Shown: positions 4,185 to 62,246 of the stretch, piece by piece
Layout: every line of letters begins with the position of its first letter
How positions within the stretch are numbered: position 1 is the stretch's first letter
NCBI GenBank assembly: GCA_963750165.1
Contig: CAVVPN010000003.1
Location: forward strand, 2,528,001-2,592,000
Reading direction: 5' to 3'
DNA length: 64,000 bases
DNA from: an uncultured Gemmataceae bacterium
Lineage (GTDB): Bacteria > Planctomycetota > Planctomycetia > Gemmatales > Gemmataceae
The notes under the pieces: generated by a model
What the model was told of the DNA's origin: nothing
Database searches by the model: none
The model's input: only the letters and a program-made list of their open reading frames with translations
Position numbers and translations under genes: made by a program

Positions 4185-4285
4185 TTAATGAACATTTATT
4201 AATAGAAATGAGTCACGAATAGTCTTGCCACGGCGGGAAGAATTAATAACTTGATGCTAATGTGATTATATTTTGTCAACAATGC
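4185..4285. promoter_or_regulatory. AT-rich divergent promoter region upstream of the giant gene
   Basis: Sharp AT-rich island in GC-rich DNA; candidate TTGCCA (4225)-16 nt-TAACTT; lies between divergent genes. Confidence 0.5.
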
Positions 4286-4821: not shown

Positions 4822-7800
4822 ATGTCTCTCTCCTCATGGCGTAAGATAGTCCGCCTCGTCCGTCGGCCCCTCCGGTTCGCCCCAGGCCAACGACCGGCAA
4901 CCGAGTTGAGTGCCTCCCACGGCCTGCGGCTGGAGCAGCTGGAAGACCGCACCCTGCTCTCGACCTACCAGTGGCTCGGCACCTCCTCGGCGCTGTGGAG
5001 CGATCCCGGCAACTGGACCGGCGGCCCCGCCGGCACCTTCCCCAGCCTGGCCGGCGACGTCGCCCAGTTCACCGGTTCGATCACCGGCAGCACGACGGTC
5101 ACCGTCAACCAGGCCATCACCGTCGGCGAGATCGATTTCAACACCGCCAGCAACATCACCATCAACAGCACCGGCACCAACGTCCTGACGCTGGACAACA
5201 CTCCCAATCCCAACGCCATCCTGAACGTCGCCGCCACCAACACGGGCACTCAGGTTCTCAACACGCCGGTGACCGTGGCCGCCGGCACCCCCCTGCTCGC
5301 CAGCGTCTCCGGCGGCACCCTGCAGTTGACCAGCACCGCTGACGTCATCGACGCGACCAGTGCCTTCACCGTCAACCCCGGCGCCACCCTGCGCGCCAGC
5401 GCGGCGGGCGCCGGTTCGCTGGTGATGGGCAACCTGGTGGACGCTGGCGCCCTGGGCAGCGCCGCGTTGAACCTGGCCGGCGGTACGCTGACCCTCGACC
5501 CGACCGCTTCCACCGCGGCCAACGGCGTGGCCAGCGACTACATCGCCCAGACCACCAACCAGCTCAACGGCAACGACTTCCTGACCACGCCCGCCATCGC
5601 CGGCACGCCGACGTTCCAGACCGCCGCCGTCGCTGCCGCCCCCGGCCTGGCCAACACCTTCGCCTTCGGCACCAACGCCCCGGCCAACCTCGCCGGCCAG
5701 TCCTTCGGCACCAACGTTCCGACCACAGATTTTGGCGTGCGCTGGACAGGGATGCTGAACGTCACCACCCCCGGGCCGACCACGTTCACGTCCACCAGCG
5801 ACGACGCCATGAAGGTGTACGTCGATGGCGTGCTCGTGGTGAACAACAACGCCAGCGCCGGTGGTCACGGCCCCGACGCCCCCGTCTCCGGCACGGTCAC
5901 CCTGAGCGCGGGGTTGCACGACATTCGTGTGGACTACACCCAGGGCACCGGCGGCGACGAGGCCCTGCTCACCTGGACGCCCGCCGGCGGCACGGCCCAG
6001 CCCATTCCCTTCAGCGCCCTGTACGCGCCCGACCCGCTCGACCTGGGCAATGCGGTCAACGTGACGGCCAACTCCGCCATCCAGCTCAACGGCGGCAACT
6101 TCACCGCGGTGGGACTGGGGGCCTTGACCCTCGGCGCCGACCTGACCGTGACCGGCCAGGCCGGCAAGCGCCTCAACTTCAGCGGCGCCACGGCCACCGT
6201 CAACCCGGTCACCCTGAACGACACCGTGGACGTGGGCTTCGTCAGCAGCTACGCCACCAACCCGTACACCCCCGGTGTGGTGAACATCCCGAACGCCACC
6301 TTCTACAAGCAGGGTGCCGGCCAGCTTTTCCTGGACAACACCAGCACCACCACCCCGAACGTCCTGCTGGTCCTCGACATCCAGGGCGGCCGCGTCGTGG
6401 CCGTCGGCAGCAGCACGGCCAACTCCAACAGCGACCCGCTGGGCACCGGCAGCGTGCAGTTCGACGGCGGCACCCTGTCACTGGACAGCCGCAACGGCGC
6501 CGTCACCTTCGACAACGCCGTGAACGTCATGACGGTCGGTGGCACCATTGAGGACCAGGCGGACGCCCAGACTCTGGCCCTGGGTAGCGCCACGACGGCC
6601 AACACCGTCACCATCGCCAGTGGGCTGACCCTGAACGTCAACACCTTCGGCGGCACGCCCACGGCCGTCGGCAACACCGCCGGCGCCACCCTGCAAATCA
6701 ACGAGCCCATCAGCGGCGGCACCCTGGTCAAGAACAACGTCCCGATCAGCACCACGGCCAACCCCGGCACGCTGATCCTGAGCCCGGTCGCCGCCAACAG
6801 CTTCGCCAACCTGACCGTCAACGGCGGCACCGTGACCGACACCACGGCCGGCGGCCTCAGCGGCGCCGTGGCCGTCAACAACGGCGGCCAGGTGACGGTC
6901 AACGCCGCCGGCACCGCGACCAACGTCACGGGTTTCACGGTCAATCCGGGCGGCACGGTGCTGATCGACGACAGCGCCGCCAATGTCAATAACCGCCTCG
7001 GGAGTACGACGGCCCTGAATCTTGCCGGCGGCACCTTCACGCTGACGGGCAACGCCACGGCCGCGACCTCCGAGCAACTCGGGGCGATCAGCGTTCAGTC
7101 CGGTTTCTCCACCGTCAACATGAACAAGGGCGCCGGCGGCACCCTGACCCTGTCGGCGGCCAGCCTGGCTCAGACGACTGCCGGGGCGGGCGTCAACTTC
7201 GCGGCGCCCAGTGGCGGCGGCGTCTACGGCTCGACCAACCTGCTGAATGTTACCACGGCTCTGCCCTCGACCAACGGCATCGTGCCCTTCGCCACGGTCA
7301 CGGGGACCGACTTCGCCGCCGGGGGTGGCAACACCATCGCCGCCTTCGTGGGCTATGTCACGTCCCTGGCGGCGGCAACCGCCACGAGCAACGTCAAGCT
7401 CACCGGCAACGACGTGGTGCCGGCCGCCGGCCTGACGGTCAACTCGCTCATCATCAACGGCACCAACCTGAGCGTCACCGGCAGCGCCACCCTCACCAGC
7501 GGCGCCGTCCTGATCACCGGCGGCACGGACTCGGTCAACGCGCCGCTGAACATCGGCACTGCGGGCGCCCTCATCACCAACACCGGCGCCACGGCCAACT
7601 ACAACGGTCCCATCGGCGGCTCGGCCCTGGCCGTGGCGGGCGGCGGCACCACGGTGTTCAACAACGCCGACACCTACACGGGCGGCACCACGCTGGAGTC
7701 GGGCATCCTGAGCATCGGTAACCCCACCGGCCTGGGCACCGGGGCGCTGACGCTCATCAACGGCACGGTCCAGGCGAGCATCGCCACCACGGTCAGTAAT

Positions 7801-10800
7801 GCCGTCAACCTGACCAGCGCCGGCGGCCCCAACGGCACCGTGACACTCGGCGGCAGCACACCGTTGACCTTCAGCGGCGCGGTCAACCTGACCGGCGACA
7901 ACACACTGACCCTGGCCAACCCCGCGGGGACGACCTTCTCGGGGGCCCTGAGTGGGACCGGCTCGCTGACGCTGGTGGGCGGCGTCGCCAACGGCACCCT
8001 GGCCCTGTCGGGCGACAATAGCGCCTTCACGGGGGCGCTCACGCTCCAGGGCGGCAACCTGGTTCTGGGCTCGAACAATGCCCTGCCCGGCGGCGCGACG
8101 CTCAGCGGCGGGACCGTCCTGGCGAGCACCGCGGTCACCACGTCGGCGGCGCTCACGGTCAACGGGCCAGTAACGTTCGCGGGCGGCAACGCCCTCACCC
8201 TCGGCGGCGCCGTCACCACCACGGCCGGGGCGGCGCTCACGGTCAACAACAGCACCACGATCACCGGCGCCGTCACCGGGCCGCTGGAACTGGCGGGCGG
8301 CCTGGGCACGCTGACACTGGACAACAGTGCCACGGTCAGCGGCGACACCACCGTGGCCGGCGGCACCCTGAGTGTGGGCAGCGCCGCCCCGCTCGGCACC
8401 GGCACCCTCTGGCTGTCCGGCGGCACCGTGCAACCCACCGCGGCCGGCCTGACCTTCAGCAACCCGGTGCAGCTCGGCGGCACGCCCACCCTCGGCGGCA
8501 CTGTTGCCAACGCCGCCACTTTCAGCGGCCCCGTCACCCTGGCATCCGCCACCACTCTGTCGGTGACGAACGGCACCACCATCACCGGCGTCATCGGCGG
8601 CGGCCCCACGGCCGGACTGACCCTGGCCGGTGGCACGCTCAACCTGCAAGCGGCCAACACCTACACCGGCACCACCACGATCGGTGGCGGTAATTTGGTG
8701 CTGAACGGCGCCGGCGGCGCCCTGACGGCGACGAGCGGCATCGTCATCAACCAGGGCGGCACCCTGACGCTGGACAACACCGGGACCAACAACACCAACC
8801 GCGTCAACGCCGCCGCCTCGGTCACCTTCAACGGCGGCACGGGTGTCCTGCTCGGCAACGGCAGCGCGCCCACGGTCCAGGCCGTGGGGGCCATCACGCT
8901 CAACAGTGGCCAGTCCACCATCACCGTCAACACCAGCGGGCCGGGCGCCGGCTTCAACCCCGCCAGCCTGAGCCGCAACCCGGGCGCCACCGTCAACTAC
9001 ACCGGCAACGCTGTGCTGCCCAGCACCGCGACCAGCCTGCTGCCCTTCGCCACCGCCAACGGCAGCAATTTCGCGGTGATCGATCCGGTCACCGGCCCGG
9101 CCGCCTTCACCGCCTACACGACCAGCCTGCCCAGCGGCGGCGGCACCGGCACCGAGAACGTCAAGCTGACCGGCGGCACCACCACGGTCACGCAGAACAC
9201 CACCATCTTCTCCCTGGTCCTGGCCAACGGCGCCAACCTGACGATCAGCCCGGGCGTGACCCTGACCCTCGTCAGCGGCGGTCTGTTGACTGTGGGCGGC
9301 AACAGCACAATCAGTGGCGGCACCCTGGTGCTGGGCACCAACGCCACCACCGATGGCGTCCTCAGCACGGACGCGACCACGACCAGTCTCACGATCAACA
9401 GCACCATCGCCGGCATTGGCGGTCTGACCCTGAGTGGTGCCGGCACTGTGACGTTGAACGCGGCCAACACTTACACCGGGACGACCTGGCTCAACGGCGG
9501 CACTCTGGTGCTCGGCAACGCCGCCGCCCTGACCGGCGGCGCCCTGAGCCTGACCGGCGGCACTCTGCAAACCGCCGTCGCCGGCGGCGTGTCCCTGGGC
9601 AACGCCGTGACGCTGAACAACGCCGCGGTCACCTTCAGCGGCAGCAACCCCATCGTGTTCACCGCGGCCGGCAGTGTCACCCTGGGCGGCCTGAACAACA
9701 CGGTCACAGTCGGCAACGCCGCCGGCACACCGCTGGTGGTCTGGAACGGCACGGTCACCACCCTGGCGGGCGCGGTCGGCAACCTGATCAAGTCCGGTCC
9801 CGGCACCCTGGTCCTGAGTGGGGCCAACAACTACACCGGTCAGACGCTCGTCAACCAGGGCATCATTCAGGTGCAGAACACCACCAACACCGCCGGGACC
9901 GTGCCGTACACGACCCCGCTGGGCAACCCCTACGCCGGCGCCGCCACGACCGTCGCCGCCGGGGCCAGCGTGCAGATCCTCGGCACCGGCCTGAGCATTG
10001 ACAAGGCCCTGGTTCTCAATGGTGGCACGCTGGAAAACCTGACCGGCGGCAACAACACCTGGACGGGCAACATCGTCCTGGCCGTCCCGAGCACCATCGC
10101 CGTGGACCCGGCCACCACGCTCACGATCACCACCGCCACGGTCAACGCCTTGCCCAGCGGCGGCATCAGCGGCAGCGGCAACCTGACCAAGACGGGCGCG
10201 GGCACGCTGGTACTGAACGCGGCCGACACCTACACCGGCCAAACCATCATCAACGGCGGCAACGTCAACGTGCAGAACGGCCTGGCCCTCGGCCTGCCGA
10301 CCGGCCAGGGCGGCGACGTGGTTACCGTCAACGCCGGCGCCACGCTCCAGGTGCAGGGCGGCATCACCGTCGCCGGCAAGAACGTGACGCTCAACGGCAC
10401 CGGCTTCGGCAACACCGCCGGGCAGAGCGGCGTGTTGCCCCAGGGGGCACTGGTCAACCTCACCGGCACCAACACCTGGTCCGGCAACATCACCCTGACC
10501 GGCACCGCGGCCCTGACCGGCGGTGCGGTGCCGCTGCTCGCCGGCAGCAACACTGCCAGTTCGATTGGCTCCGCCAGTGGCACGGCGCTGTTCGTGTCTG
10601 GCGTCGTCAGCGGCACCGATCTGATGAAGGTTGGCGCTGGCACGCTGACGCTGCTCAACACCGACACCTACACCGGTGCCACCGTGGTGCTGGGTGGCAA
10701 CCTGACACTGGCCAACAACAACACCGCCGCGGTCGGAGCGACAACGGTCGCCGGCTCGGCGGTCAACGGTGTCACCAGCACCGTCAACGGCGTCACCTAC

Positions 10801-13800
10801 ACCAACTTCGCCGCCGGCTCGCTAACGGTCAACGGTCTCGGCACCCTCGGCACCAGTGCCGTGACCATCGACCAGGGCGGCCAGCTGACGCTCGACAACA
10901 CCGCCATCAATCAGCAGCGTTTCACCAATGCCACGGCCCCGAACCTCACGTTCAACACCGGCAGTTTCACGTACCTGGCGAACAACAGCGCGGGCACCAG
11001 TTCGGCCGAGACGGTGGGGACGGTCACGCTCAACAGCGGTCAGTCGGTCATCAACGCCGGCTACGCCGCGGCGCCGGTGACGGGCGCCGGCGGCTCGACG
11101 TTCACGGTCAACACCCTGGTGCGCAACCTGGGCGCCACGGTCAACTTCGTCGGCGGCACGGGCAACGCTTCGCCGCTCGGCGTGGCGACCAACGGCGTGC
11201 TGAACCAGCTGCTCGTCAACAACGGCCTGACGGCGACCAACGGCACGGCGGGCACGTTCTCGGCAAACGGTTACCAGTATTTCGGCAACGGGGCGAGTGG
11301 TGTCGGCAACATCATCCCGTTCGCGGAGGTCAACGGCGGCGTCGCGTCCGACTTCGCCAGTTACTCGACCACCGGCGTCACGGCGTTCGCCAACTACATC
11401 GTCCAGACGTTCAGTGCAGCCACCGGCACCCTGACGGTGACCACGGCGAGCGACATCATCAAGGTAGTCGATGCCTTCACCGCGGCCGTGACGGTCACGG
11501 TGCCGAGTAACACGACCTTCGGCGCCCTGCTCGTCAGCATGCCGACCACCGCCGCCGGCACGCTGCTCTTCACCTGGGCCAGCGGCAGTACGGTGACCAT
11601 CGCCAGCGGGGCCTACGTCTCGACCGGCAACAACACCGCGAACAACATCACCTTCGGCGTCTCGGGGGCCCAGTGGGTGCTCCCCGCCGCCGCGGCCCCC
11701 TTCACCGGCGAGACGATCGTCTTCGCGGACAAGGGCACCACCAGCAACCGCTTCGACGCCACCATCGTCGGCAGCGGCAGTCTGGTCGTCGGCGGCGCAG
11801 GCGCCTTCGCCTTCGACCAGCAGGCCGCCGGCTCCAACTACAGCGGCGGCACGACGATCAACGCGAGTTCCAGTGTGTTCCTCATTACGGCGACTGCCAA
11901 CTTCGGAACCGGTCCGGTCACGATCAATGGTGGTGCGTTTGCGCCGACTTCGCCGGTAATTTCGTGATTTCCAACCCCGTCAACCTGAACGGCTACGTCA
12001 CGCTCACCAACAACGCGGCCGGCGCGAACGGCGTCTTCACCGGCCCGGTGACGCTGACCGGCAATACCGTCCTCAACACCCTGAACCCGGGCACCGCCGG
12101 CGCCATCCTCTTCAACAGCCCCATCACCGGCAGCAACGCCCTGATCCTGGCCAGCACCGGCGCCAACGAGCCGCTCAACTTCAACAACGCCAACACCTAC
12201 ACGGGCGGCACCTACCTCGTCGGCGGCACCCTGTTGGTCAACAACAATGGCGCACTCGGCACCGGAGCTGTGACCTTCGCCGGCGGCACCCTCGCCGCGC
12301 TGTCCGACCTCACCAACATCGCCAACACCGTCAACCTGCCAAACGCGACCGGAGTCATCGGCGGCAGCAACAACCTCAACTTCACGGGCACGGTCAACCT
12401 GCTGGGCACCGGCACCCTGGCCGTGACCAACACCGGCCTGACGACCGTCTCCGGTACGATCACCGACGGCGGTACGGCCAACACCGCTGGCGTTCTGGCC
12501 ACCGCGGGCAGCACCGGCACGCTGAAGCTGACGGGCACCAACACCTACAGCGGTGGCAGTTCACTCAGCGCCGGCACCGTCATCCTCGGCGGCAGCAATG
12601 TGCTGGGCACCGGCCCTGCGGTCCTCAGCGGCGGCACGCTGATCGGGACGACGCCGCTCACAATCGGCAACGCCCTGGTCCTGACCGGCAATTTCACCGT
12701 GACGGGCAGCAACGCCCTGACCTTCACTGGCGTGACCACCCTCGGCGCCAACGTCACCATGACCGCGAACAACGCCACCACCCTCGGCGGCCTGATCGGC
12801 GAGACGGGCGGCTCCCGGTCGCTGACACAGGCCGGTTTCGGCACGTTGGTGCTGACCGATCCGGCGAACTATTTCTCGGGCGGCGCCACGCTGAACGGGG
12901 CGACCGTGTCGCTCGGCACCTTGGTCGTCGGCAGCCCCACCGCCCTGGGCACGGGCACGCTGACACTGACCAACGGCATCGTTCAGGCCGGCGGCGTGTT
13001 CGCCATCCCGAACGCCGTGAATCTCAACGGCGGCCTGGTCACCTTCGCCGGCGCCAACCCGCTGGTCTTCAACGGTGCCACGAGCCTGGCGGCCGGCACG
13101 ACCACGCTGCTGGCCAACACTCCAGCGACGTTCAACGGCGTCATCAGCGGCACCAACGCCCTGGCCCTGGCCGGCGGCAACGTGACGCTGACCGCGGCCA
13201 ACACCTACACGGGCGCCACCAGTGTCAGCGGCGGCACTCTCACCCTGAGCGGCGGCGGCACCCTGGCCGTGACACCGATCGCCCTCAACCAGGGCGGCAC
13301 CCTCACCCTGGACAACACCGGCACCAACAACCCCAACCGCATCGCCGACGCCGCCGCGCTCACCCTCAACGGCGGCACCCTCAACTACCTGGGCAACGCC
13401 GCCGCCGCCTCGACCGAGACTCTCGGAGCCATCACCCTGGGCGCCGGCAACTCCACCATCACCACGACCCCGGGCGGCACCCAGAGTGTCACCCTGACCC
13501 TCACCAGCCTGGCACGGGCGGCGGGCTCGGGCGGCTTCGTCAACTTCACCGGCACCGGCCTGGGCACCGCCAGCAACCAGGTGCTGTTCACCACCGCCCC
13601 GACACTGACCGGCACAGCTCAGCCCGGCGGCACCGGCCTGCTGCCCTACGCCCAGGTCAACGGCAGTGACTTCGCCACCGTCGGCAGCAACGGCGTCACG
13701 GCCTACAGCGGCACCGGCAGCGCCTACGCCCCGACGGTCAGCGGCGCCGCCCCGGGGGCCAACGTTCTCATCAACGCCGCGACCAACGCCAGTGACACCG

Positions 13801-31800: not shown

Positions 31801-34800
31801 ATGCCACCAACACCGCCTTCAACTTCACACTCGCCGGCAACATTCTCAACGCCTCCGGGGTGGCGGGAACACTGCAAAAGGGGTTGGCCAGCCTCGCCGG
31901 GGCCGTGCCGAGCAACAGCGCCGGCACCGTCGTCCTGAACAACATCGAACTGTACACTGGGGCCACAACCGTCAACCAGGGCACGCTGCTGCTCAACGGC
32001 AGCGGCACGGTCCTGGGCACGTCCGGCGTCACAGTCGCCCCGGGTGCCACCCTGACGCTGGACAACACGGCCGCCAACCTCAGCCGCCTCGGTGCCGCCA
32101 CCAACCTCACCCTCAACGGCGGCACTTTCAACCTCCTGGGGACCGCCAACGCTGCGACCACCCAGGCCCTGGGCGCCGTCACCGTGGGCGCCGGCAGCGC
32201 GACCGTCCAGACAACCGCTGGTAGCGGCGGCACGGTCGCCCTGACGATGGCGAGCTTTAGCCGCAGTGCCGGCGGCAACGTCAACTTCGTCGCCGGCGGT
32301 GGCCAGACCCTCGGCAGCGCCGCCAATCAGGTCGTCATCAACCAGGCGACCACGACCACACTGACCGGCGGCGGCGTCGGTATCCTGAAGGGCGCCACCG
32401 TGACCGACGCCACCACGACCGTCACCGTCGGGGCGGGCACCGCCAACTCCGGCGGCCTCAACCTCGTCACGGCCCCGACCAGCGCCACCGCCACCAGCCT
32501 GGCCGCCCTGACGAGCTACCAGTCGTTCAACCTGGGCGGCAATTCCTCGGGCGACAACGTCTTCGTCAACCAGACGGGAGCGCAGGCGGTGACGGGCGCC
32601 AGCGTGGCCAACGCCTACCTGTTCCGCACCGACGGCCTGAACCTGACCGGGGCGTTCACCCTCACGCCGGCCTCGGGCATGTTCGTGTTCGCCGACACGG
32701 GCAACACCGGCAACACCATCGCCGTCAATCCGAACTTCGGCGCAACCGAAGGCGTCTTCCTCACGGCCAACGTCGCCGGCGCCACCGGCGTCACCACCGT
32801 CAGCGGAGCCATCCCGGCCACGTCCACCGCGGGCCTGACGTTCGGCGGCAGCGGCACCCTCGCCCTGACCGGGGCCGACGCCTACACGGGGACGACCAGC
32901 ATGACCGCGGGCACGCTGATCCTGGGAAGTGCCACGGCGGTTGGCCCCGCCGCCGACACGTTCTCCCTCATCGGCGGCACGCTCCAGTCGCTGGCGAATC
33001 CGACCGTGACGGCCACCATCACCGCGGCCAGCGAGACCGGCAACCTCGTGACGTTCTCGACGACGGCGACCACCCTGGCGGTCAACCAACCGGTCACGAT
33101 CGCGGGCGTGACGACGGCTGGCTATAACGGCAATTTTGTCATCCAGGCTTTCACCTCGGGCACGTCCTTCACCGTGTACAACCCTCTCACCGGCCTGGCC
33201 GCTTACACCGGGAGCGGCAACGTGAGTCTCCCCTTCGCCATCACCAACCCCATCCAGCTGAATTCGGGCACGAGTCCGGTTACGTTCGGCGGCTCCAACG
33301 CACTCACGCTCAGCGGGGCGGTGTCTGGGAGTGGTTCCCTGAACGTGGCCGGTGCTGGTGCTCTCCTGACCTCCACGGTCGCCAACACCTACACCGGGAT
33401 TACCACGGTGAGTGGGGGTCAACTGGTGGAGACGGGTGCGGTCGCCGCCTTCGCGGGCCAACTGGTGGTCAAGAGCGGCGGTATTTTTAACAGTTCCAAC
33501 AACAACGCCGCGGTCCTGGGCTCGGCCGTCAACATCACGATCAACCAGGGCGGCACCTTGCTGATGACCAATTCAAGCACCCTCAGCGGCAACTTGATCC
33601 TCAACGGCGGCACCTTCACCGGACTGTCTACCACCGCAATCACGCTGGGTGCCAACTTCGGCAATGTGATCGTCCTGGCCAACGCCACGACGTCAACCAT
33701 GAATTTTGGCACCACCACCAGCGGCCTGGTCCTGGGTGGCGCGAACGTGATGCGCGATTTCATCGTCGCCGCCGGCGGAACCCTGGATGTTCAAACCCCC
33801 ATCACCAACAGTGCCGCCTCCGCCGGGTTGAACAAGCTCGGCGGCGGCACCCTGCAATTTTCAGGTACGGTCGCCGACACGTTTGCCGGCCTCACCACGG
33901 TGAACGAGGGCACGCTGCTGCTCGCCAAGGGGGCGGCGGTGGCTGCCCTGACCGGGGGCCTGGTGGTCGGTGACTTCAACGGCACCGACACGGTGCGGGT
34001 GACGACCAACTTCGCCCAGATGGGCAGCGCCCCTGTCATTGTCAACGGTTCCGGCACCTTCGACATCAGCGGCTCCACCACAGGCCAGACCGTCGGCAAC
34101 CTGGACGTGCGCGGCGGTGTCGTGAAGACCACCGGCACCAACAACAACACGCTGAGCGTGGGCGCCACCGTCACCGGCCTGACGGCCGGGACGACGGGCA
34201 CGATCAGCGGCAACCTGGCCCTGACGGCGGCCACGGCGATCAACACCGCCGACAGCGGCGCCGTCCCGGCTCTGTCCATCTCGGCGGTGATCTCGGGCGC
34301 CGAAAACCTCACCAAGGGCGGTGCCGGCACGCTGACCCTCAACGGCACCGCGATCAACACCTACACCGGCACCACGACCGTCAACACCGGCACTCTGCTG
34401 CTCGACGACTCGGCCGGCACGGCGGTGCCTGGCACCCTGACCGTCGGCGACTTCCTTGGCGGTTCAGGCGCCGCCAAGGCGGATGTGGTGCGTCTGCTGG
34501 CCCCGACTCAGACGCTCACCTTCGGCGGCGTCACCGGCGGCAACTTCACGCTGACGTTCAACGGCCAGACCACGAACACCATTTCCTGGAGCGCGACCGC
34601 CGCCACCCTGGCGAGCAACATCCAGAGTGCTCTGGCGGCGCTCACCAACGTCGGCGCCGGCAAAGTTACGGTCACCGGCACCGGGCCGTTCACGGTGACC
34701 TTCGCCAACACCGTGGCCAATCCGACGCCGCTGGTGGTGGCTAGCAACGGTCTCACCCCGGCCGGAGCGACGCTCACCGTGGCCTCCGCCGTCAACCAGA

Positions 34801-37800
34801 TCGCCCTCCCCGCGACGGTCACGGTCAACAACTCGGGCCTGCTGGACCTGAACGGCAGCAACAACACCATCGGCAACGGCGCGGTCACGGCCCTGACCCT
34901 GACGGGCGGCAGCGTCACCACCGGGGCCGGCACGCTGACCCTCGGCGGCAACGTGGCCGGCGTGGCCAACGCCACCAACATCACTCCGGCCAGCATCAGC
35001 GGCAACCTGAACCTGGGCGGCGTCACACGGGCGTTCGACGTGCAGCCCGGTGCCCTGGTCAGCCAGAACCCGAACACCACGCTCCTGGACGCGAACGACC
35101 TGGTCGTCAACGCCGCCATCAGCAACGGCGCCCTGACCAAGAACAACACCGGCGCGCTCCAACTCACCGGCACCAACACCTACTCCGGTTCGACCACGGT
35201 CAACGCCGGTATCCTGCTCGTGGACGGCACGCAACCGAGCAGCCCGGTCGCGGTCAACTCCAACGCGACCCTGGGCGGCACCGGCACGGTGGGCATGTTG
35301 ACTGCGCTGGGCGGCACGGTCAACCCCGGCGACCCCGTGTCCAGCACGGGCACGCTCAGCGCGACGACCAGCGGCAACCTCAGCAGCGGCAGCCTGACCG
35401 TTGAGATTGCCGGTTCGACAGGCCACTTCACCAGGGACGTGCTCAACCTGGGCAGCGCCGTACTGACGCTGGGCGGCACCTCGATTCTGGACCTCGACCT
35501 GTCCGGCCTGACCACCACCACCGGCGGCCCGATCACCATCATCCAGGACGGCGGCACCACCGGGACGTTCAGCGCCGTCAACGTGCTGAACAACCCGAAT
35601 GGCTTCACGGCCATCGTGGGCTACACGGCCAACACGGTGACGGTGAACGTGGTCACGACCGCCACGCACCTCGGTGTCAACGTCCCGGCCACGGCCACGG
35701 CGGGCAGCCCCTTCACCTTCACCGTGACGGCGCTGGACCAGTTCAACAACCCGGTCTCGGGTTACCTGGGGACAGTCCATTTCACCAAGAGCGACAGCGG
35801 CACCGGCTCGGCCGTGCCCGCCGACTACACCTTCGTTGCCGGCGACCACGGTTCGCACACCTTCACGAACGGCGCCACCTTCGTGACCGCCGGCAACCAG
35901 ACGCTGACCGCCACGGATACCACGACCAGCAGCATCACCGGCACCAGCAGTGCCGTCAGCGTCAGTGCCGCGGCGGCGACGCACTTCAGCGTCACTGCGC
36001 CTGGCAGCGCCACGGCGGGGACGGCCTTCAGCTTCACGGTGACGGCCCAGGACCAGTACAACAACGCGGCGACCGGCTACGCAGGCACGGTGCATTTCAC
36101 CAGCACCGACAGCGCCGCCACCCTGCCGGCCGACGCCACTCTGACCAACGGCACTGGCACCTTCAGTGCCACCCTGCGCTCCAGCGGCAGCCAGACCCTG
36201 ACTGCCACCGACACGGTCACCAGCACCATCACCGGCACGAGTGGCGCGATCAGCATCCCTCTTACCCCCGCCACACACTTTGTGGTCAGCGCCCCGAGCA
36301 CTGCCACGGCAGGCGGTTCGTTCACCTTCACGGTGACGGCCCTGGACGCCTCCAACAACCCAACCTCCGGCTATACCGGCACGATCCACTTCACCAGCAG
36401 TGACGGCCAGGCCGTGCTGCCCGCCAACGCCATGCTGACGAACGGCGTCGGCACGTTCAGCGCCACGCTGAAGACTTCGGGCAGCCAGACCCTGACCGCC
36501 ACCGACACGGTGACCAGCAGCATCACCGGCACCAGCAGCGCCATCACGGTCAGCGCCGCCGCCGCCACCCACTTCGTGGTCAGCGCCCCGAGCAGCGCCT
36601 CGGCGGGCGGCGCCTTCCTGGTCATGGTGACGGCGCAGGATCAGTTCAACAACGTGGCGACCGGCTACAGCGGCACGGTCCACTTCACCAGCACGGACAC
36701 CAGCGCCATCCTGCCGGCGAACACCACCCTGACCAACGGCACCGGCTTCTTCGTCGTCACGCTGAGGACCACTGGCAGCCAGACGGTCACCGCCACCGAC
36801 ACGGTGACCAGCACCATCACTGGCACCAGCGCCGCCATCAGCGTCAGCGCCGCCGCCGCCACCCACTTCAGCGTCACCGCCGCCGCCACGGCCACCGCCG
36901 GGACGGCCTTCAGTTTCACGGTGACGGCCCTGGACCAGTTCAACAACACGGCCGTTGGCTACACCGGGACGGTGCATTTCACGACGACGGACAGCGGCAG
37001 CGGCGCGGCGGTGCCCGCGGACTACACCTTCGTGACCGGCGACAGCGGCGCCCACACTTTCACGGGCGGCGTCACTCTCGTCACCGCCGGCGCCCAGACG
37101 CTCACCGCCACCGACACGGCCACCGGTTCCATCACTGGCAGCGCCACGATCACCGTTGCCGCCGCGGCCGCCACGCACTTTACGGTCAGCGCCCCCGCCA
37201 GCGCCACCGCCGGGGCACCGTTCCTGGTCAACGTGACGGCGCTGGACGCCTTCAACAACACGGCCACCGGCTACAGCGGCACCGTCCACTTCACCAGCAC
37301 CGACGCGGCGGGGACGCTGCCAGCCAACAGCACCCTGAGCAACGGCAGCGGCGTCTTCATCGTCACACTGAAGACGGCCAGCAGCCAGACGGTCACCGCC
37401 ACGGACACGGTCACCGGCTCCATCACCGGCACCAGCAGCGCGATCGCAGTCAGCGCCGCCGCGGCGACACACTTCACGATCATCGCCCCGAGCAGCGCCA
37501 CGGCCGGCAGCGCCTTCAGCTTCCTGGTCACCGCGCTGGACGCCTTCAACAACACGGCGACGGGCTACACCGGCACCGTCCACTTCACCAGCTCGGACGC
37601 TCAGGCCACGCTCCCGGCCAACGGCACCCTGATTGGCGGCACCGGCTCCTTCAGCGCCACGCTCGCGACCGCCGGCAGTCAGACCCTCACCGCCACCGAC
37701 ACGGTGACCAGCAGCCTCACCGGCACCAGCAACGCCATCACTGTCGTCTCGAACGCCGCCGTGACTCACTTCGCCGTCAGCGCCTCCCAGCGGCGCCACG

Positions 37801-40800
37801 ATAGGCAGTCCCTTCAACTTCACAGTGACGGCCCTGGACGCGAACAACAACGCGGTGCCGGGGTACGGCGGCGTTGTGCATTTCACCAGCACCGACGGCG
37901 CCGCCACCCTGCCGGCCAACACCACCCTGACCGGCGGCACCGGCACCTTCAGCGCCACCCTGCAGACAATCGGCAGCCAGACGATCACGGCCACGGACAC
38001 CACGACCAGCTCGATCACCGGCACCAGCAACGCCATCACGGTCAGCGAAAGCACGGCGACGCACTTCAGTGTCAGCGTCCCAGCCACGGCCACGGCGGGC
38101 AGCCCCTTCAGCTTCACGGTGACGGCCCTGGACGCCTTCAACAACCCAGTCAGTGGCTACAGCGGCACCGTCCACTTCACCAGCACCGACATCCAGGCCA
38201 CCCTTCCGGCCAACACCACCCTGACCAATGGCACCGGCACCTTCACGGTTACGCCCAAGACCGCCGGCGCCCAAACCCTGACCGCCACCGACACCACCAC
38301 CAGCAGCATCACCGGCACCAGCAACACGGTCACGGTCAGCGCCGCGGCGGCCACCCACTTCACGGTCAGCGCCCCGGCGAGCGCCACGGCGGGCAGCGCC
38401 TTTAACTTCACGGTCACGGCGCTGGATCAGTTCAACAACACGGCGACGGGCTATACCGGCACCGTCCACTTCACCAGCACGGACGCCAACGGCACCCTGC
38501 CGGCCGACGGCACCCTGACCAACGGCGCCGCCACCTTCAGCGCCACCCTGCGCACCGCCAGTAGCCAAACCCTGACGGCCACGGACACCGTGACCAGTAG
38601 CATCACCGGCACCAGCAACACGATCACCGTCGCCGCCGCGGCGGCCACCCACTTCACGGTCAGCGCCCCGGCGAGCGCCACGGCCGGCAGCGCCTTTAGC
38701 TTCACGGTGACGGCGCTGGACCCGTTCAACAACACCGCCACCGGCTACACCGGCACGGTGCATTTCACCAGGACGGACAGCGGCAGCGGTTCGTCGGTGC
38801 CCGCGGACTACACCTTCGTGGCCGGCGACAACGGCGCCCACACCTTCACAGGTGGCGCCACCCTCGTCACCACCGGCGCCCAGACGCTCACCGCCACCGC
38901 CACCACCACCAGCAGCATCACCGGCACCAGCAACACCATCACCGTCGCCGCCGCGGCGGCCACGCACTTCAGCGTCAGCGCTCCGGCCACGGCCACGGCG
39001 GGTGGCGCCTTCCTCTTCACGGTGACGGCGCTGGATGCGTTCAACAACACCGCCACTGGCTACTCTGGCACGGCGCACTTCACGAGCAGCGACGGCCAGG
39101 CGGTCCTGCCCGCCAACAGCACCCTGAGCAACGGGACGGGCGCCTTCGTCGGCACGCTGAAGACTGCCGGCGCCCAGACGGTCGCGGCCACGGACACCGT
39201 GACCAGCACCATCACCGGCACCAGCAACACGATCACCGTCGCCGCCGCGGCCGCCACCCACTTCACGGTCAGTGCGCCGGCGAGCGCCACCGCGGGCGCG
39301 GCTTTCAGCTTCACGGTCACCGCACAGGATGCGTTCAACAACACGGTCGCTGGCTACACTGGCACGGCGCACTTCACGAGCAGCGACGGCCAGGCGATCC
39401 TGCCCGCCAACAGCACCTTAACCAGCGGCACCGGCACCTTCACCGCCACCCTCGAGACGGCAGGCAGCCAGACCCTGACCGCCACCGACACGGTGAGCAG
39501 CAGCATCACCGGCACAAGCGGCACCATCGCCGTCAGCGCCGCCGCCGCCACCCACTTCAGCGTCAGCGCCCCGGCCAGCGCCACCGCGGGCGGCGCCTTC
39601 AACTTCACGGTCACGGCCCAGGATGCGTTCAATAACACGGCCGCCGGTTACAGCGGCACCGTCCATTTCACGAGCAGCGACGGTCAGGCCGCCCTGCCCA
39701 TTAACAGCACCCTGAGCAGCGGCGTGGGCACCTTCAGCGTGACGTTGAAGACCGCCGGCAGCCAGACCCTGACCGCCACCGACACCGTCACCAGCACCAT
39801 CACTGGCACCAGTAACACGATCACCGTCGCCGCCGCGGCCGCCACGCACTTCAGCGTCAGCGCCCCGGCCAGCGCCACCGCGGGCAGCGCGTTCAGCTTC
39901 ACGGTCACGGCCCTGGACGCCTTCAACAACACCGCCAGTGGCTACACCGGTGTCGTCCACTTCAGCAGCACCGATGGCCAGGCGGCCCTGCCCGCGAACA
40001 ACACCCTGAGCAGCGGTGTGGGCACCTTCAGCGCTACGCTGAAGACCGCCGGCGCCCAGACCCTCACCGCCACCGACACCGCCACCAGCTCCATCACCGG
40101 CACGAGTGGGTCCGTCAGTGTCAGTGCGGCGACACTGAACCACTTCCTGGTCAGCGCCCCGGCGAACGCAACGACGGGCACGGCAATCACCTTCACCGTC
40201 ACTGCCGTGGATGCGTTCAACAACTTCGCCGCAGGCTACAGCGGCACGGTCCACTTCACCAGCAGCGACGCCACCGCCGTTCTGCCGGCCGATAGTCCCC
40301 TGACCAACGGCGTCGGCACCTTCAGCGCCACCCTGAACACCAGCGGCAGCCAGACCCTCGCCGCCACCGACACCGTCACCTCCTCCCTCACCGGCACCAG
40401 CGCCGCCATCGCCGTGCGCGGCCTGGTGGTGACCGCCTTCACGCCGACGCTCACCGGCTTCACCGTCGCTTTCAGCAAGCCGTTCGTCAACAGCAGTGCC
40501 AGCCCGCTCAACCTCTACGACGCCGGCTCCGCCGGCTACGGCGCCGCCGATGTCACCCTGGTCGGCTCCGGCGGCATTGGTACGGTCAAGGGTTCGCTGC
40601 TCATCGACCCCAGCAACCAGAGCTTCACCTTCCTCAAGACCGACCTGGTCACCGGCGGCGGCACCTCCGGCCTGCTGGCGGCCGGCACCTACACCGTCAC
40701 CCTGGTCAGCGGCGCCACCGCCTTCAAGGACGCCACCGGCGCCCCCCTGGACGGCAACAACGACGGCGTCAACGGCGACAGCTACGTCACCACCTTCACC

Positions 40801-42318
40801 GTGGCGGCTAGCACGGCGGTCGCCGTCACCGTGCCCGACTTCGCCCGCGGCCCCGACGCCACCGACCCGATCAACGTGCCCAACAACAGCACCAACGGAA
40901 TCCCCATCGCCCTGAGTAACGGCGCCGGCGTCACCGACGGCACCTTCGTGCTCAACTACAACGCCAACCTGCTGACCATCACCGGCGGCACCGTCAACAC
41001 CGCGCTGACCGGGGCCACCTTCACCGTCAGCACTTCCGGCAGCGGCACCAACGCTCAGGCGACCATCACCTTCCACACTCCGACGGCGCTGGCGTCCGGG
41101 GTGGTACGGCTCGGCGGGCTGGCGGCCACGGTGCCCGCGAACGCCCCCTACAAGGCGAAGGAGTTGCTCCACTTTGGCAGCCTGTCGCTCAACGGCGGGG
41201 CGATCACAGCGGTCGGCGACGACGGGGTGCATGTGGTGGCCTTCCTGGGCGACACCTCGGGGGACGGCACCTACACCAGCGCCGACAGCGTGTTGATCTC
41301 GAACGTGGCGGCGGCCAAGGACAGCGGTTTCGCCGCCTACCCAATCCTCGACCCGGCCATCGTCGGCGACATCACCGGCGACGGCCGCATCACCTCGGCG
41401 GACGCCACGGCGCTGAACCTGTACCTGAACGGGACCGCGTCCACCCTGGTGCCGCCATATCCCGGCGTGCCGGCCAACATCCCGGCTGGCCCTGATCCGG
41501 CGTTGAGCATCCCCACCGACCTGCGGGCGGGGCCGGGCGGGACGGTGACGGTGCCGGTGAACATCGACGACCCGCACCCCAGGGGCAGCACAGGCATGAC
41601 GCAGGCGCTGCTGGCGTTGACCTACGACCCGGCCGTGTTCGCCGTGTCGGCGGCCGACATCCGGCTGGGCAGCGTGCCGGCCGCGGGCACGGGCTGGACG
41701 CTCCAAACCCGGGTGGACGCGGCCACGGGCCAGATTGCCATCATCCTGTTCAGCGTCACGCCGATCACCAGTTCGGCCGGCGGCAGCCTGGTGACCATCG
41801 ACTTCCACGTCAAGCCCGGAGCGGCGCCCGGAGTCAGCCCGATCAACCTGGCGGCCGAGGTCAACCCCAACGGTCAGGGAGCAGTCCGCACGGCGGTCGA
41901 TGACAACCAGGGGCCGTACACGCTGACCCCGGCGCCGACCGACGCCCCCACCGACCCGGGCGTGGACGGACTGGTGCAGCTGATCGCCGCCGACCCGGTA
42001 TCGGCGACCCTGGACAAGGGGGCGACGGGCGCCGACGGAACCCAGGCGGGAGCTTTCGTGTTCTCCGGTTATGGGGTCGCCGTCCCGGCGGTCAACCCGG
42101 TGCTGGTGGTGACGACACCCACGGCGGGCAATGGTCTGCCCTGGGTCGGGGGCGCTGCTCAGAAGCTGGCGGATCGGGTGTTCCTCGACCTGGCTGGCGG
42201 GACGGACGGCACGAACGGCCCGGCGCACGCGGTTCGGACGCCGCACGAGTGGGATGCCCTGCTCTGGGACGGGGCGGGTGAAACCGACTGGGCGGCCGAC
42301 CTCGGCCACACCGGTTGA
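4822..42318 (+). CDS. Giant extracellular adhesin-like protein, ~12,498 aa after correcting two indels (LEPR-XLL, PATR beta-strand repeats, 3 PA14, 16 Ig-like repeats, cohesin/dockerin)
   Basis: ORFs 4822..11967, 11673..38405 and 37825..42318 join in mid-repeat: one base missing near 11943 (GGAF|ADFAGNFVISNPVNL) and one extra near 37784 (THFAVSA|PSGATIGSPFNFTVTALD). N-terminal LRLEQLEDRTLLS; dozens of LxKxGxGTLxLxxANTYTGxTxVxxGTL repeats. Confidence 0.85.
5520..6030 (+). other. PA14 domain 1 of the giant protein
   Basis: FGVRWTGMLNVTTPGPTTFTSTSDDAMKVYVDG...GLHDIRVDYTQGTGG; boundaries approximate. Confidence 0.8.
13191..14315 (+). repeat. Intragenic duplication, copy 1 (pairs with 17775-18899)
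   Basis: Near-identical DNA from ACCGCGGCCAACACCTACACGGGCGCCACCAGTGTCAGC; offset 4584 nt, in frame. Confidence 0.85.
17775..18899 (+). repeat. Intragenic duplication, copy 2 (pairs with 13191-14315)
   Basis: The first ~800 nt are almost identical, including synonymous positions. Confidence 0.85.
21945..22420 (+). other. PA14 domain 2 of the giant protein
   Basis: VAGQWLGYLNIVTGGSYTFTNLSDDASTLFIDG...GLHLFRVIYYNAAGG; boundaries approximate. Confidence 0.8.
22910..23480 (+). repeat. Second intragenic duplication (pairs with ~28000-28570)
   Basis: Shared TLDNxGTNxxDRxNDAAxVALNGGTLNFLGNAAALSTETLGALTLTGGAS...INALKVSGNATLTIN with high nucleotide identity. Confidence 0.75.
26720..27190 (+). other. 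PA14 domain 3 of the giant protein
   Basis: ALIETGYLNIVTPGNYIFQFIGDDGAVVYLDG...GLHALQIRVNNN; boundaries approximate. Confidence 0.75.
35661..40415 (+). repeat. 16 tandem ~98-105 aa Ig-like repeats
   Basis: Consensus ATHFxVSAPASATAGxAFxFTVTALDAFNNTATGYxGTVHFTSxDxxAxLPANxTLTNGTGTFSATLKTAGSQTLTATDT; units 1, 5 and 11 are a longer VPADYTFVxGD variant. Confidence 0.85.
40815..41920 (+). other. Cohesin-like / dockerin-like / cohesin-like C-terminal module
   Basis: Duplicated Ca-binding loops GDTSGDGTYTSAD and GDITGDGRITSAD, flanked by GIPIALSNGAGVTDGTFVLNYNANLLTI and GGTVTVPVNIDD...LALTYDPAVF...GSLVTIDFHV. Confidence 0.65.
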
Positions 42319-42331
42319 TACAATCAACTAC

Positions 42332-42577
42332 ATGAACGATTTTCGCGACATGGCCTGGGACCCAGAGCACCGCCGCAGCTTTGAAAAGTTGCTGTACCTG
42401 GCCGCCCAGCGCGGCGACGTTGACCTCGTGGCCGAACGACTCTCGTGGGGCATCGACCCCAACTGCGTCTTTTCCAGGGGCCGCACTCCGCTGATCGCCA
42501 ACGTGCGCGGCTCGAGCCCCAGCGCGGCGACGGTTCGCGCCTTGCTGGAACGCGGCGCCATCGTCGATGTTCTTTGA
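42332..42577 (+). pseudogene. Truncated ankyrin-repeat protein
   Basis: LLYLAAQRGDVDLVAERLSWGIDPN...GRTPLI...TVRALLERGA, ending abruptly against a convergent MazF remnant. Confidence 0.65.
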
Positions 42578-42718
42578 TTTCGCCACTTTCGATGTCAGCG
42601 GAACGGTCATCACCAGCCCGGCCAGCCCGGCATTAAAGGAGTCGTCGCTCACCACCAGCACGGGCCGTTGCCCGGACTGCTCATGCCCGCGTCCGGTTCC
42701 CAGATCGGCCAGCCAGAT
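42566..42718 (-). pseudogene. PemK/MazF toxin remnant (N-terminal half)
   Basis: Minus strand reads IWLADLGTGRGHEQSGQRPVLVVSDDSFNAGLAGLVMTVPLTSK, the MazF N-terminal motif; in-frame TAA directly upstream and C-terminal half absent. Confidence 0.8.
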
Positions 42719-42932: not shown

Positions 42933-43111
42933 CTGTGGCAGTGCAGGCCGCTGGTGGTCAGCCCGTGCCCGCCGCCCACTCGTGTGCAAACCGTGCGTGA
43001 ACCGCTCTAGCCGGCCGGCTCGTGGGCGTTCGTGGTCGAAATGGTGGGCAAAGGTGGGGATTTGTGGGCAGCCCGATTTCGGGACCACCGCCGGAGAAAA
43101 TCGATGCATCG

Positions 43112-43139
43112 TTGCACCGCCGCTCCGTTGGGGTACAAT
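43112..43139 (+). promoter_or_regulatory. Candidate sigma70 promoter of the DUF1592 operon
   Basis: TTGCAC-16 nt-TACAAT, about 90 nt upstream of ATG 43232. Confidence 0.5.
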
Positions 43140-43231
43140 CGCACTATTCCGGTCGCGACCGAACCTCAGCAAGCCCTCCGGGAACGGTCGGACCAAAGCA
43201 ACCCCGCAAGACCCACCCCCACAGGGATTCG

Positions 43232-46200: not shown

Positions 46201-46285
46201 TGCGTTCGGCAGCCTGGTCGAAGCGATTGTCACGAGCCCGCAGTTTTTGAACCAGAGGGGGCGCGACGACCCGCGCGACCAGTAG
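43232..46285 (+). CDS. DUF1592/DUF1588-family planctomycete cytochrome c-like protein (two apparent frameshifts)
   Basis: Hydrophobic N-terminus from ATG 43232; shift near 43456 into RYCYACHG; RRLSNAEFDYTIRDL, ALASRLSYFLWSSLPD, TSPVKRGYWV, CAACH; shift near 46058 into YLREKRQDDFVDNLCRKLFSYALGR. Confidence 0.85.
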
Positions 46286-55878: not shown

Positions 55879-56019
55879 GGTCTTGCTCCTTCGCGTGAGG
55901 GGTGAGGGAATAATTCTGGCAACGGGTTTCGAGTCTTGCGCCGAACACTCTACCTCTTGTAACCACCCGCGCCGGGCGAAGTTCTGCGCGGCGCGAAAAA
56001 AGGCACGACCGGGGGCCGC

Positions 56020-57411: not shown

Positions 57412-57568
57412 CCGCGATTCCTTTCTGCAGCACGGGCGACGCAAGGGAGAACACTCCGCCAAGCATAGCCGCCCTGGTCCGGCGCCGCCAGCGCAATGCA
57501 AACGGCCGCAGCGCTCCTGCCCAGGTAGCGCTACGGTCGTTGCTGGCACTCAACATTTCTCAGCCGGC

Positions 57569-58972: not shown

Positions 58973-59119
58973 GATGGTCCTCTCCTTTGCGGATGACACG
59001 TGTCGGATAGCAAGAGCCTAACTTACTTCATGACGATTGACAAGCCGCCGCGGATTGCGCGGCGTACACTGACCGGGTGCCGCCAGGGCACGGTCACTCG
59101 CCGGTAGTGAGGCCACCCC

Positions 59120-62067: not shown

Positions 62068-62246
62068 GGTCATGCCCTCCAGTAATGGAATGAGTATGCC
62101 AACCAGCTCCCCCTTATCATCCTGCTCCCTGACGGCGCTTCCGCTGGCATGCCATCTATGTTGCATTGTACCCAGCTGACCCGGCGTGTCAAACGCATCG
62201 TTCACAAGCCGATACTATCGCGGAGTCGTGGCGGTTGCAATGTGCG

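Follow-up and report, generated by a model that had tools for sequence, protein, structure and literature searches.

Three overlapping ORFs lie on the forward strand of the window (the whole 64,000-nt stretch of Gemmataceae DNA that was analysed), and they raise the question of whether the locus encodes three proteins, the remains of one, or a single giant that is broken only in the assembly. ORF A (4822..11967; 2,381 aa) is coding until ~11941 and meets its stop 24 nt further on, ORF B (11673..38405; 8,910 aa) is coding over ~11943–37783, and ORF C (37825–42318, open from 37765; 1,497 aa) is coding from ~37786. All features given below are on the same forward strand.

Three ORFs form one reading path

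High GC3 (~0.9) leaves frame 0 for frame 2 near 11.9 kb and is back in frame 0 near 37.8 kb, and a codon-usage Viterbi path steps by 2 bases at 11941 and by 4 bases at 37785. Together with tblastn, these data uphold the initial annotation, in which the ORFs join in mid-repeat through one base missing at ~11943 and one base extra at ~37784. Two further steps of the same path, at 4846 and 4895, cancel each other; they lie in the atypical leader and were treated as noise. Reading across both one-base breaks gives a whole gene (4822..42318) of 37,497 nt, and the joined translation bore out the proposed 12,498 aa with a net shift of zero; there is no in-frame stop on the coding path 4822–42318. The joined product (with X at the breaks) has a pI of 4.2 and a computed mass of 1.20 MDa, in agreement with the ~1.1–1.2 MDa that had been claimed. 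It is also free of cysteine, as expected, and all six cysteine residues of ORF B sit in its head and tail, which are Arg/His/Cys-rich out-of-frame junk of ~90 and ~200 residues respectively. Its composition (T 18.1, G 15.0, A 13.9, L 9.8, V 8.5, N 8.3 and S 7.8%) matches the predicted dominance of Gly/Thr/Ala/Asn in its top three residues, but asparagine ranks only sixth. In the AT-rich upstream spacer there is a weak match to a sigma-70-like consensus (4243..4272; one match compared with 0.3 +/- 0.6 in shuffles), which is no evidence of function.

Junction 1 (11936..11946) lacks one base at GCGCC inside a beta-helix repeat, and junction 2 (37778..37788) has one extra base at GCGCC in an Ig repeat, within its HFxVSAP motif, for which 12 sibling repeats were compared; the chance of both falling at GCGCC is ~0.012. 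Within this genome, 100 of 103 tblastn matches at junction 1 and 111 of 114 at junction 2 pass the site in a single frame, and a paralogue with an 11,412-aa frame stays open over both equivalent regions. Such reading through by paralogues and sibling repeats argues against programmed frameshifting or phase variation giving short (2,381-aa) and long forms. Contingency switching is common among adhesin genes and the two shifts do cancel, but there is no slippery heptamer within 30 nt of either junction, base runs there do not exceed three, and housekeeping genes are broken in the same manner (see below), so that we consider a switch of this kind extremely improbable. No more weight can be given to three overlapping genes for three separate proteins: three ORFs with possible GTG starts are present, but the breaks lie within repeat units, ORF B would bear its junk residues at both ends, and an export motif is missing from ORFs B and C, whose first starts fall within repeats, with no purine-rich ribosome-binding site seen by eye in the preceding 20 nt. 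To judge from the sequence, the three ORFs are very probably one intact gene.

Conserved genes are broken in the same manner

When 177 conserved genes (209.5 kb of alignment) were compared with the proteins of genomes G003 and G023, 15 of them showed frame switches, 16 in all. The affected genes included atpA (twice; G000:C3:2430771 and 2431500), secDF, purQ and ahcY, and for each of these four the frameshifted copy was the only one found by tblastn. The reverse control was not zero, giving four rows (three distinct) in 172 genes (197.6 kb), and internal stops were present in six of the 177 best HSPs. The break rate in conserved genes, 0.076/kb, predicts 2.85 breaks in 37.5 kb. Of 629 well-flanked breaks across the genome, 377 had GCGC at most 7 nt away, compared with 15.5% at flanking positions and 191 of 1,550 simulated indels (12%); among the 16 homology-defined sites, 13 had GCGC no more than 10 nt away, compared with 21% at random. 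The other 40% of the genome-wide breaks had no GCGC nearby. A genome-wide HMM detected junction 2 and missed junction 1. As a path based on GC3 only put the junctions of this gene ~15–30 nt off, the numbers of GCGC sites that it gave in other genes are approximate. Homopolymer slippage explains little, with runs of at least four bases at 99 of the 629 sites compared with 53 in flanks, and no run above three at either junction.

Because conserved genes are broken at a matching rate, GCGC is enriched at the breaks and both junctions lie at GCGCC, the two breaks are most likely systematic assembly errors at this motif and not biology, a question on which the initial annotation had not decided. 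Long-read miscalls at a modified GCGC motif, with both platform and modification inferred, are the most likely source of both single-base consensus errors. Two PF00145 methylases were found in the genome, but neither could be assigned to GCGC. Methylation-linked nanopore consensus errors have been reported (PMC11610573 and PMC11610603), and ours resemble those in the accessible text of PMC11610573 in clustering at a short sequence motif, whereas those are mainly base ambiguities at other motifs and ours are single-base indels at GCGC. Among the matches listed, no paper was relevant by title to GCGC methylation and nanopore indels.

A real recent pseudogene, with at least one indel in the DNA itself and its paralogues standing in for a copy that is either dead or cut short at 2,381 aa, would suit a large and redundant gene with two close paralogues and a downstream region that resembles the junction of two gene fragments, and some of the breaks away from GCGC may indeed be real. 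Nevertheless, the two breaks match the count predicted from the assembly error rate and both lie at the error motif, the gene runs for 37.5 kb without a nonsense codon and with GC3 near 0.9 throughout, and the sole atpA copy is likewise broken twice, all of which makes a pseudogene improbable. The best explanation overall, to which we give a probability of roughly 0.7, is an intact gene, broken in the assembly at GCGC, that encodes a secreted surface rod of the LxLExLExR family.

At ~0.076 breaks/kb, the probability that a gene of 37.5 kb is assembled without a break is only ~6%, so that annotation-based counts of giant genes will be low in such assemblies; the locus is a clear example of assembly errors fragmenting planctomycete giant genes. 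A chain of frames of ~26,500 aa is also hidden in the same assembly, at G000:C4:647458–727178.

Export-type motif and beta-helical shaft

A planctomycete LxLExLExRxLL export-type motif (4924..4959; residues 35–46, LRLEQLEDRTLL) follows a basic leader with no long hydrophobic core by eye, and fits the consensus published in PMC8567305. The motif in its forms RRLxxExLExRxLLA and LxLExLExRxxP (PF07595) is credited there to Studholme et al. 2004. PF07595 scores 13.3 bits on the giant against a cut-off of 25.5, all 27 matches of this profile in the genome stay below that value, and control genomes score at the same level; the LxLExLExR pattern itself has 98 matches in this genome. Neither the first 193 aa nor the C-terminal segment matched an NCBIfam family. 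Export would be directed by the N-terminal motif.

Beyond the motif lies a PATR-rich right-handed beta-helix region (4960..35680; ~10,200 aa; 35 PATR stretches, TIGR02601), in which a ~500-aa module recurs about ten times in diverged form, alongside recent internal duplications (13123–14846 and 17707–19445, 86% DNA identity). One 502-aa module out of the ~10,200 aa was modelled (pLDDT 91.4, pTM 0.90), and its structural neighbours in a wide VIA-align search were beta-helices, the best being Ssp (8e7f; Z 12.4, rmsd 3.7, 172 aligned), followed by Vag8 (Z 11.9) and Fap2 (9qe7; Z 10.9, 430 aligned at rmsd 28.1). Foldseek gave no match to the module at E <= 0.001 and only weak ones to antigen 43 and SepA. 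The beta-helical character first proposed for the whole protein holds for most of it and fails for the last ~2,200 aa, which consist of Ig repeats and a cohesin–dockerin–cohesin module. These two parts, the export-type motif and the three PA14 domains described below were absent from the initial annotation. Scaled from Fap2 (47 nm per 2,905 aa), the beta-helix part would form a rod of ~150 nm. PA14 domains (PF07691) are present at 5698..6012 (E 7.2e-15) and 22137..22391 (E 4.7e-9), and a third, below the cut-off (26919..27098; E 4.9e-4, 20.4 bits against 24), shares a DD motif with the other two; all three may bind glycans along the shaft. Pfam matches to SPATA48, UFD1, Cupin_3 and Filamin were discounted as reflecting composition or generic Ig similarity.

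Ig stalk and C-terminal module

Sixteen tandem Ig-like repeats of 98–105 aa each, with Big_1 matches, form a stalk at 35680..40420. Ig-like domains are ~4 nm in length, and the stalk would add ~60–70 nm, for a total rod of ~200 nm. The C-terminal module starts with an all-beta Ig-like domain in the predicted structure (40420..40810), for which the first Atlas match, Big_5 in 16% of members, is a lead only. It continues with a divergent cohesin (cohesin 1, 40810..41240), which falls below the PF00963 cut-off (E 2.4e-4) and was recognized from its model and Foldseek, a dockerin with two Asp-rich calcium-loop motifs (41248..41430; PF00404 E 5.8e-7, above cut-off), the key aspartates of which are conserved in 88–100 of 102 homologues, and a second cohesin (cohesin 2, 41506..41856; PF00963 E 1.1e-9; Foldseek, e.g. 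3ul4, TMt 0.81). Foldseek E values for the C-terminal cohesin fold were 3e-10 to 1e-6 against many solved cohesins. The protein ends in a low-complexity linker and a Trp/Asp-rich tail (42000..42318, by inspection), similar tails being found on both paralogues; inspection of this tail revealed no barrel, PEP-CTERM or obvious membrane helix.

Paralogues, relatives and candidate scaffolds

Several comparable giants are encoded in this genome, including the two close paralogues, and ~12 frames match the C-terminal module strongly. Uninterrupted homologues were sought by tblastn, and this expectation held for the 11,412-aa paralogue frame but not for a full-length orthologue, which the queries used did not find in the other genomes. 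A gene for 10,601 aa runs uninterrupted in genome G023 and shares both the N-terminal motif and the C-terminal module with the giant; the two proteins align over this module only. The C-terminal query was matched in seven of 41 genomes, this one counted, and at three loci in the species-genome scan; among its named relatives, the closest carry the labels Planctomycetota or Gemmataceae, an indirect pointer to a planctomycete host. The 150 best relatives of the beta module included, by pattern counts, 44 with PEP-CTERM-like tails, at least 19 with barrel-like aromatic ends and six with the planctomycete motif, so the rod appears to have been swapped between export systems.

Both paralogues are directly followed by genes for motif–cohesin–cohesin–Ig–9xDUF4214 proteins, and in L065 a cohesin pair comes after the C-terminal module. 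Beside the present copy there is no cohesin–DUF4214 gene, and the downstream neighbour looks truncated. The C-terminal module would hold the rod non-covalently, with these cohesin–Ig–DUF4214 proteins as putative binding partners; on this sequence evidence, tethering via cohesin–dockerin is put forward tentatively, at slightly less than even odds. A complex prediction for the dockerin (A2 residues 266–352) and the second scaffold cohesin (A4) scored 0.01, with an uncertain partner fold. Elsewhere in the genome PF00404 had six matches, all in frames of at least 2,209 aa, in a search that missed the giant's own divergent dockerin. No paper joining cohesin and DUF4214 was found among the matches listed in the open-access literature.

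An intact gene might instead give a released protein that, by way of its own and its relatives' cohesin–dockerin–cohesin modules, is cross-linked to form a matrix or coat. Each chain does carry both plug and sockets, the many frames with strong module matches would supply partners, and this copy has neither a membrane anchor nor an adjoining anchor gene. However, the cohesin–Ig–DUF4214 genes directly after both paralogues look like dedicated anchors, and an RTX–DUF4214 protein has been reported to bind O-antigen (bioRxiv 10.64898/2026.09.02.748959), which leaves release unlikely compared with a secreted rod held at the surface.

Comparison with known systems

The rarity of proteins above 10,000 aa implied at the outset was overstated, given the several giants in this genome and the frequency of proteins of at least 10,000 aa in Planctomycetota (bioRxiv 10.1101/2023.11.21.568195). 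Motif proteins of Tuwongella immobilis reach 10,566 aa and 1.1 MDa, with the motif in eight of the ten longest and in 52 genes (PMC8567305), and the giant has in common with such proteins the N-terminal motif, great size, repeat-built extracellular domains and many genomic copies. Unlike the Tuwongella set, as far as it is described in the accessible text, the giant is somewhat longer, consists mainly of PATR beta-helix with PA14 domains in place of integrin-beta/Calx repeats, ends in Ig–cohesin–dockerin–cohesin and scores below cut-off for PF07595. The largest gene of Fuerstia marisgermanicae is 36,239 bp (PMC5177795), about equal to our 37,497 bp, and giant genes there are likewise above 30 kb with predicted adhesion and carbohydrate binding. 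The giant is thus a large but expected planctomycete surface protein and not new in kind, since genes for more than 10,000 aa and 1.1-MDa motif proteins have already been published. In the accessible text of the survey cited above, 10,000 aa is ‘large’ and at least 30,000 aa ‘giant’, the latter among PVC phyla only in Omnitrophota; those proteins have catalytic domains, whereas ours has 12,498 aa and no catalytic Pfam family, and neither enzyme nor membrane domains were detected in it.

Type Va autotransporters and beta-helix adhesins (Ssp, Vag8, Fap2, antigen 43 and pertactin) share PATR repeats and a right-handed beta-helix with the giant, but the C-terminal beta-barrel PF03797 is absent from the protein and was not found in the 93%-complete genome; the giant is passenger-like as a rod, yet is no autotransporter. 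T1SS/RTX giant adhesins of the LapA and SiiE type have RTX repeats and adjacent T1SS genes. The giant does not resemble this class, with no RTX families in it by Pfam and no T1SS-like neighbouring ORF on reading the translations.

With cellulosome-type scaffoldins the giant shares the cohesin fold and a dockerin with two calcium loops, a pair also described in secreted planctomycete proteins of the planctosome (PMC6461901) and in scaffoldins (PMC11557425), where polyvalent adaptors similarly carry a dockerin and several cohesins per chain. The planctosome hypothesis, in its accessible text, concerns Phycisphaerae, where the cargo consists of peptidases and the anchor is of the lamin-tail type (PMC6461901). 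In the present case a 10,000-aa beta-helix takes the place of the cargo and a cohesin–Ig–DUF4214 protein is the candidate anchor; both are sequence-only proposals.

Possible role

The product is very probably a secreted beta-helix rod, and an adhesin or matrix role is probable, although adhesin function is an inference; most likely it would act over long range, as an adhesin or a spacer, in attaching the cell to particles, biofilm matrix or other cells. If the tethering is true, the pairing of rod and scaffold genes would explain how megadalton proteins with neither barrel nor anchor remain on planctomycete cells, and its small domains would allow the unproven planctosome idea to be tested. 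A wider and more doubtful possibility is a modular coat of several ~200-nm rods of 10,000–12,500 aa, plugged into dedicated scaffolds that would consist of an export motif, cohesin pairs, a long Ig stalk and nine LPS-binding DUF4214 repeats. Such a coat, if true, would be a Gram-negative, enzyme-free counterpart to cellulosome anchoring. In this reading, motif-linked errors would also hide the largest genes in long-read planctomycete assemblies, the ~26,500-aa chain included, and the size ceiling of the phylum would have been underestimated.

Reading frame and product of the giant gene

Three long ORFs on the forward strand, at 4822–11967, 11673–38405 and 37825–42318 (the last open from 37765), each overlap their neighbours, and the initial annotation had read them as one split gene. 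GC at third codon positions is ~0.9 in frame 0 to 11.9 kb, in frame 2 to 37.8 kb and in frame 0 thereafter, and a codon-usage Viterbi path stepped by 2 bases at 11941 and by 4 bases at 37785; two further, mutually cancelling steps within the leader were treated as noise. Both breaks (junction 1, one base missing, and junction 2, one extra base) lie inside repeats, with the frame continuous across them in 100/103 and 111/114 tblastn matches in the same genome, and the extra base of junction 2 is missing from 12 sibling Ig repeats bearing the same motif. The initial observation was thus confirmed, and its interpretation supported and refined. When the three segments are linked, with an X standing at each break, they give a product of 12,498 aa with a mass of 1.20 MDa, in keeping with the 1.1–1.2 MDa estimated beforehand, and a pI of 4.2. 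It contains no cysteine, as first noticed by eye, the six cysteines of the middle ORF all falling in its out-of-frame ends.

Origin of the breaks

The assembly (9.62 Mb, 12 contigs, 93% complete) was compared with two single-contig relatives, G003 and G023, by taking 561 ORFs from 37 stretches of these genomes and retaining the 177 that matched it strongly. Fifteen of these genes carried frame switches, 16 in all across 209.5 kb (0.076 per kb). They include atpA (twice), secDF, purQ and ahcY, each the sole such copy found; the reverse comparison gave four rows, three of them distinct, among 172 genes. At this rate 2.85 breaks would be expected in the giant, and the probability of finding it unbroken would be 6%.

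An intrinsic HMM yielded 1,357 shift calls across the genome, 629 of them with 300-nt flanks. It recovered 14 of the 16 homology-defined sites and, of the two junctions, only the second. GCGC lay within 7 nt of 377 of the 629 flanked shifts versus 15.5% at flanking positions, the top 5-mer being GCGCC, and accompanied 191 of 1,550 random indels that were simulated and then located with this HMM. It also lay within 10 nt of 13 of the 16 homology-defined sites versus 21% at random. Frameshift calls are enriched approximately four-fold at GCGC, most strongly at GCGCC, and both junctions lie at GCGCC (chance for both ~0.012); slippery heptamers and runs of more than three bases are absent from both. 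Nanopore assemblies are known to contain errors that DNA methylation causes at particular motifs (PMC11610573), and the pattern hints at genome-wide GCGC modification, the sequencing platform and the modification behind such errors being our inference. GCGC is not depleted in the genome (observed/expected 0.96), and two C5 methylase genes are present, neither linked to GCGC as target. The breaks are most probably assembly errors; the alternative, that a real, recent lesion in the DNA splits the giant, we regard as very improbable. Frameshift calls also occur in ordinary genes of the window, at 43467 and 46039 within the gene at 42982–46285 and at 55059 in the third member of a tandem array of three paralogs (54520–58999, minus strand); those at 43467 and 55059 adjoin GCGC, and that at 46039 does not.

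Probable export motif, predicted rod and C-terminal module

Residues 35–46 match the planctomycete motif LxLExLExRxLL, which is considered a likely export signal (PMC8567305); the Pfam motif model falls below cut-off here and on every match in the genome. In the ~10,200 residues that follow there are 35 PATR beta-helix stretches, along with three PA14 domains that bear the DD motif; the third of these domains scores below cut-off. PA14 domains with this motif are typical glycan binders. A module of ~500 aa is present approximately ten times in this predicted rod, with recent duplications at 85–86% DNA identity. Two kinds of non-helical insert interrupt it: a ~100-aa domain in three copies (~14820–15200, ~27600–28000 and ~34500–34850) with no Pfam match, and an FCCH-like beta domain in two (~24660–25000 and ~33000–33260), the first matching PF16190 below cut-off (E 0.0014).

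The beta-helical character proposed earlier held for the single rod module modelled, which is all-beta (pLDDT 91.4, pTM 0.90). Foldseek gave nothing significant with this module; a wide structural search placed right-handed beta-helices at the top (Ssp, Vag8 and Fap2, with Z values of 12.4, 11.9 and 10.9). For a repeat fold these values are modest, and they indicate shape, not function. The rod is followed by sixteen Ig-like repeats of 98–105 aa and a 527-aa C-terminal module, modelled (pLDDT 93.6) as Ig, cohesin, dockerin and cohesin, with both calcium-loop Asp pairs of the dockerin conserved in 88–100 of 102 homologs. The giant is predicted to work in the manner of an autotransporter passenger rod, but it has no barrel, and we do not class it as an autotransporter for that reason; PF03797 also had no match in this 93% complete genome.

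Paralogs and relatives

Two paralogs in the same genome share the overall plan: one at C3:3184607, whose frame stays open for 11,412 aa and which shares ~80% DNA identity with the giant over several kb, and one of ~10,500 aa at C3:3402049, which is interrupted by three shifts, each of them near GCGC. The search for uninterrupted orthologs gave an unbroken 10,601-aa gene in G023 that shares the motif and the C-terminal module with the giant but differs in its middle; no full-length ortholog was found in other genomes. Among 8,000 candidates scored, 163 were homologs of the C-terminal module, those with names being mostly from Gemmataceae or Planctomycetota, and a few being cadherin-domain proteins of proteobacteria. 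In another planctomycete genome, two tandem genes of ~4,000 aa (L064, L065) end in this module and are likewise split by frameshifts, one being followed by a cohesin pair (L065). The rod module had 9,301 relatives at E ≤ 0.001; by pattern, the best 150 of these include 44 with PEP-CTERM-like tails, at least 19 with barrel-like ends and six with the planctomycete motif.

The giant belongs to an already known kind of planctomycete giant protein. According to one survey (bioRxiv 10.1101/2023.11.21.568195), proteins that reach 10,000 aa or exceed it occur frequently among Planctomycetota. Fuerstia has a gene of 36,239 bp (PMC5177795), motif proteins of Tuwongella reach 10,566 aa and 1.1 MDa (PMC8567305), and cohesin–dockerin use by planctomycetes has been proposed as the planctosome (PMC6461901). 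The least-described element is a candidate cohesin–Ig–DUF4214 anchor, which was absent from the papers listed in our open-literature searches.

Proposed anchoring

What the analysis establishes for the giant is a single coding path, its motif and domains, and two of its folds. Beyond this, we propose that the motif would route the chain outward. The beta-helix would form a rod of ~150 nm (Fap2 scaling after subtracting ~900 aa of inserts) carrying PA14 domains as predicted glycan binders, and the Ig stalk, at ~4 nm per Ig domain, would add ~60–70 nm. The scaling takes 47 nm per 2,905 aa of Fap2 (PMC12397386). As the giant has no membrane anchor, its cohesin–dockerin–cohesin end would be the likely tether, through predicted binding.

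Directly after both paralogs lie candidate scaffold genes (G000:C3:3219175-3238820 and C3:3433921-3444474; loci L068, L087 and L086) encoding the motif, cohesin pair(s), a long stalk of tens of Ig repeats of the giant's type and nine DUF4214 repeats. Given this adjacency, the cohesin pair in L065 and a report of an RTX-DUF4214 protein as an O-antigen binder (bioRxiv 10.64898/2026.09.02.748959), these neighbours are plausible anchors, with putative binding. The ORF next to the giant is a short ankyrin-repeat one (81 aa, 42332–42577, plus strand; PF00023, E 8e-5) beginning 13 nt past the giant's stop, so the giant would need such anchors in trans. Functionally, the chief alternative to tethering is a matrix protein that is released and cross-links to itself; the missing membrane anchor and the lack of an anchor gene beside the giant speak for it, and the scaffold genes beside the paralogs speak against it. 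The ankyrin ORF runs into a minus-strand fragment (42560–42700), which may resemble a PemK/MazF toxin; the arrangement suggests that a deletion or misassembly has fused two truncated genes. Further along, at 61096–62205 (minus strand), a 369-aa ORF has a signal-like leader and then long Gly/Tyr-rich GGYG repeats.

Other putative giants in the genome

Additional frame chains for giant surface proteins, roughly 8,800–15,400 aa long and split by similar shifts, were seen on the minus strand at C11:2064518-2110694, C3:1680404-1720136, C9:1-38502 (extending past the contig end), C3:556149-582500 and C11:1496162-1522500, and on the plus strand at C4:229821-259477; some of these chains may comprise two or more genes. 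At G000:C4:647458-~727178 (minus strand; 3′ part, locus L088), six overlapping frames chain with third-position GC steadily near 0.9, from an LExLEDR motif to an end that is DUF4214-like by eye, giving ~26,500 aa if read through; four of the five called shifts lie near GCGC.

A bolder reading, at a probability of about 0.3, would be an anchored coat of ~200-nm rods together with larger hidden genes such as this chain. At twice the size of the giant, the chain would come close to the 30,000-aa line, which one survey reports, among PVC phyla, for Omnitrophota only (bioRxiv 10.1101/2023.11.21.568195).
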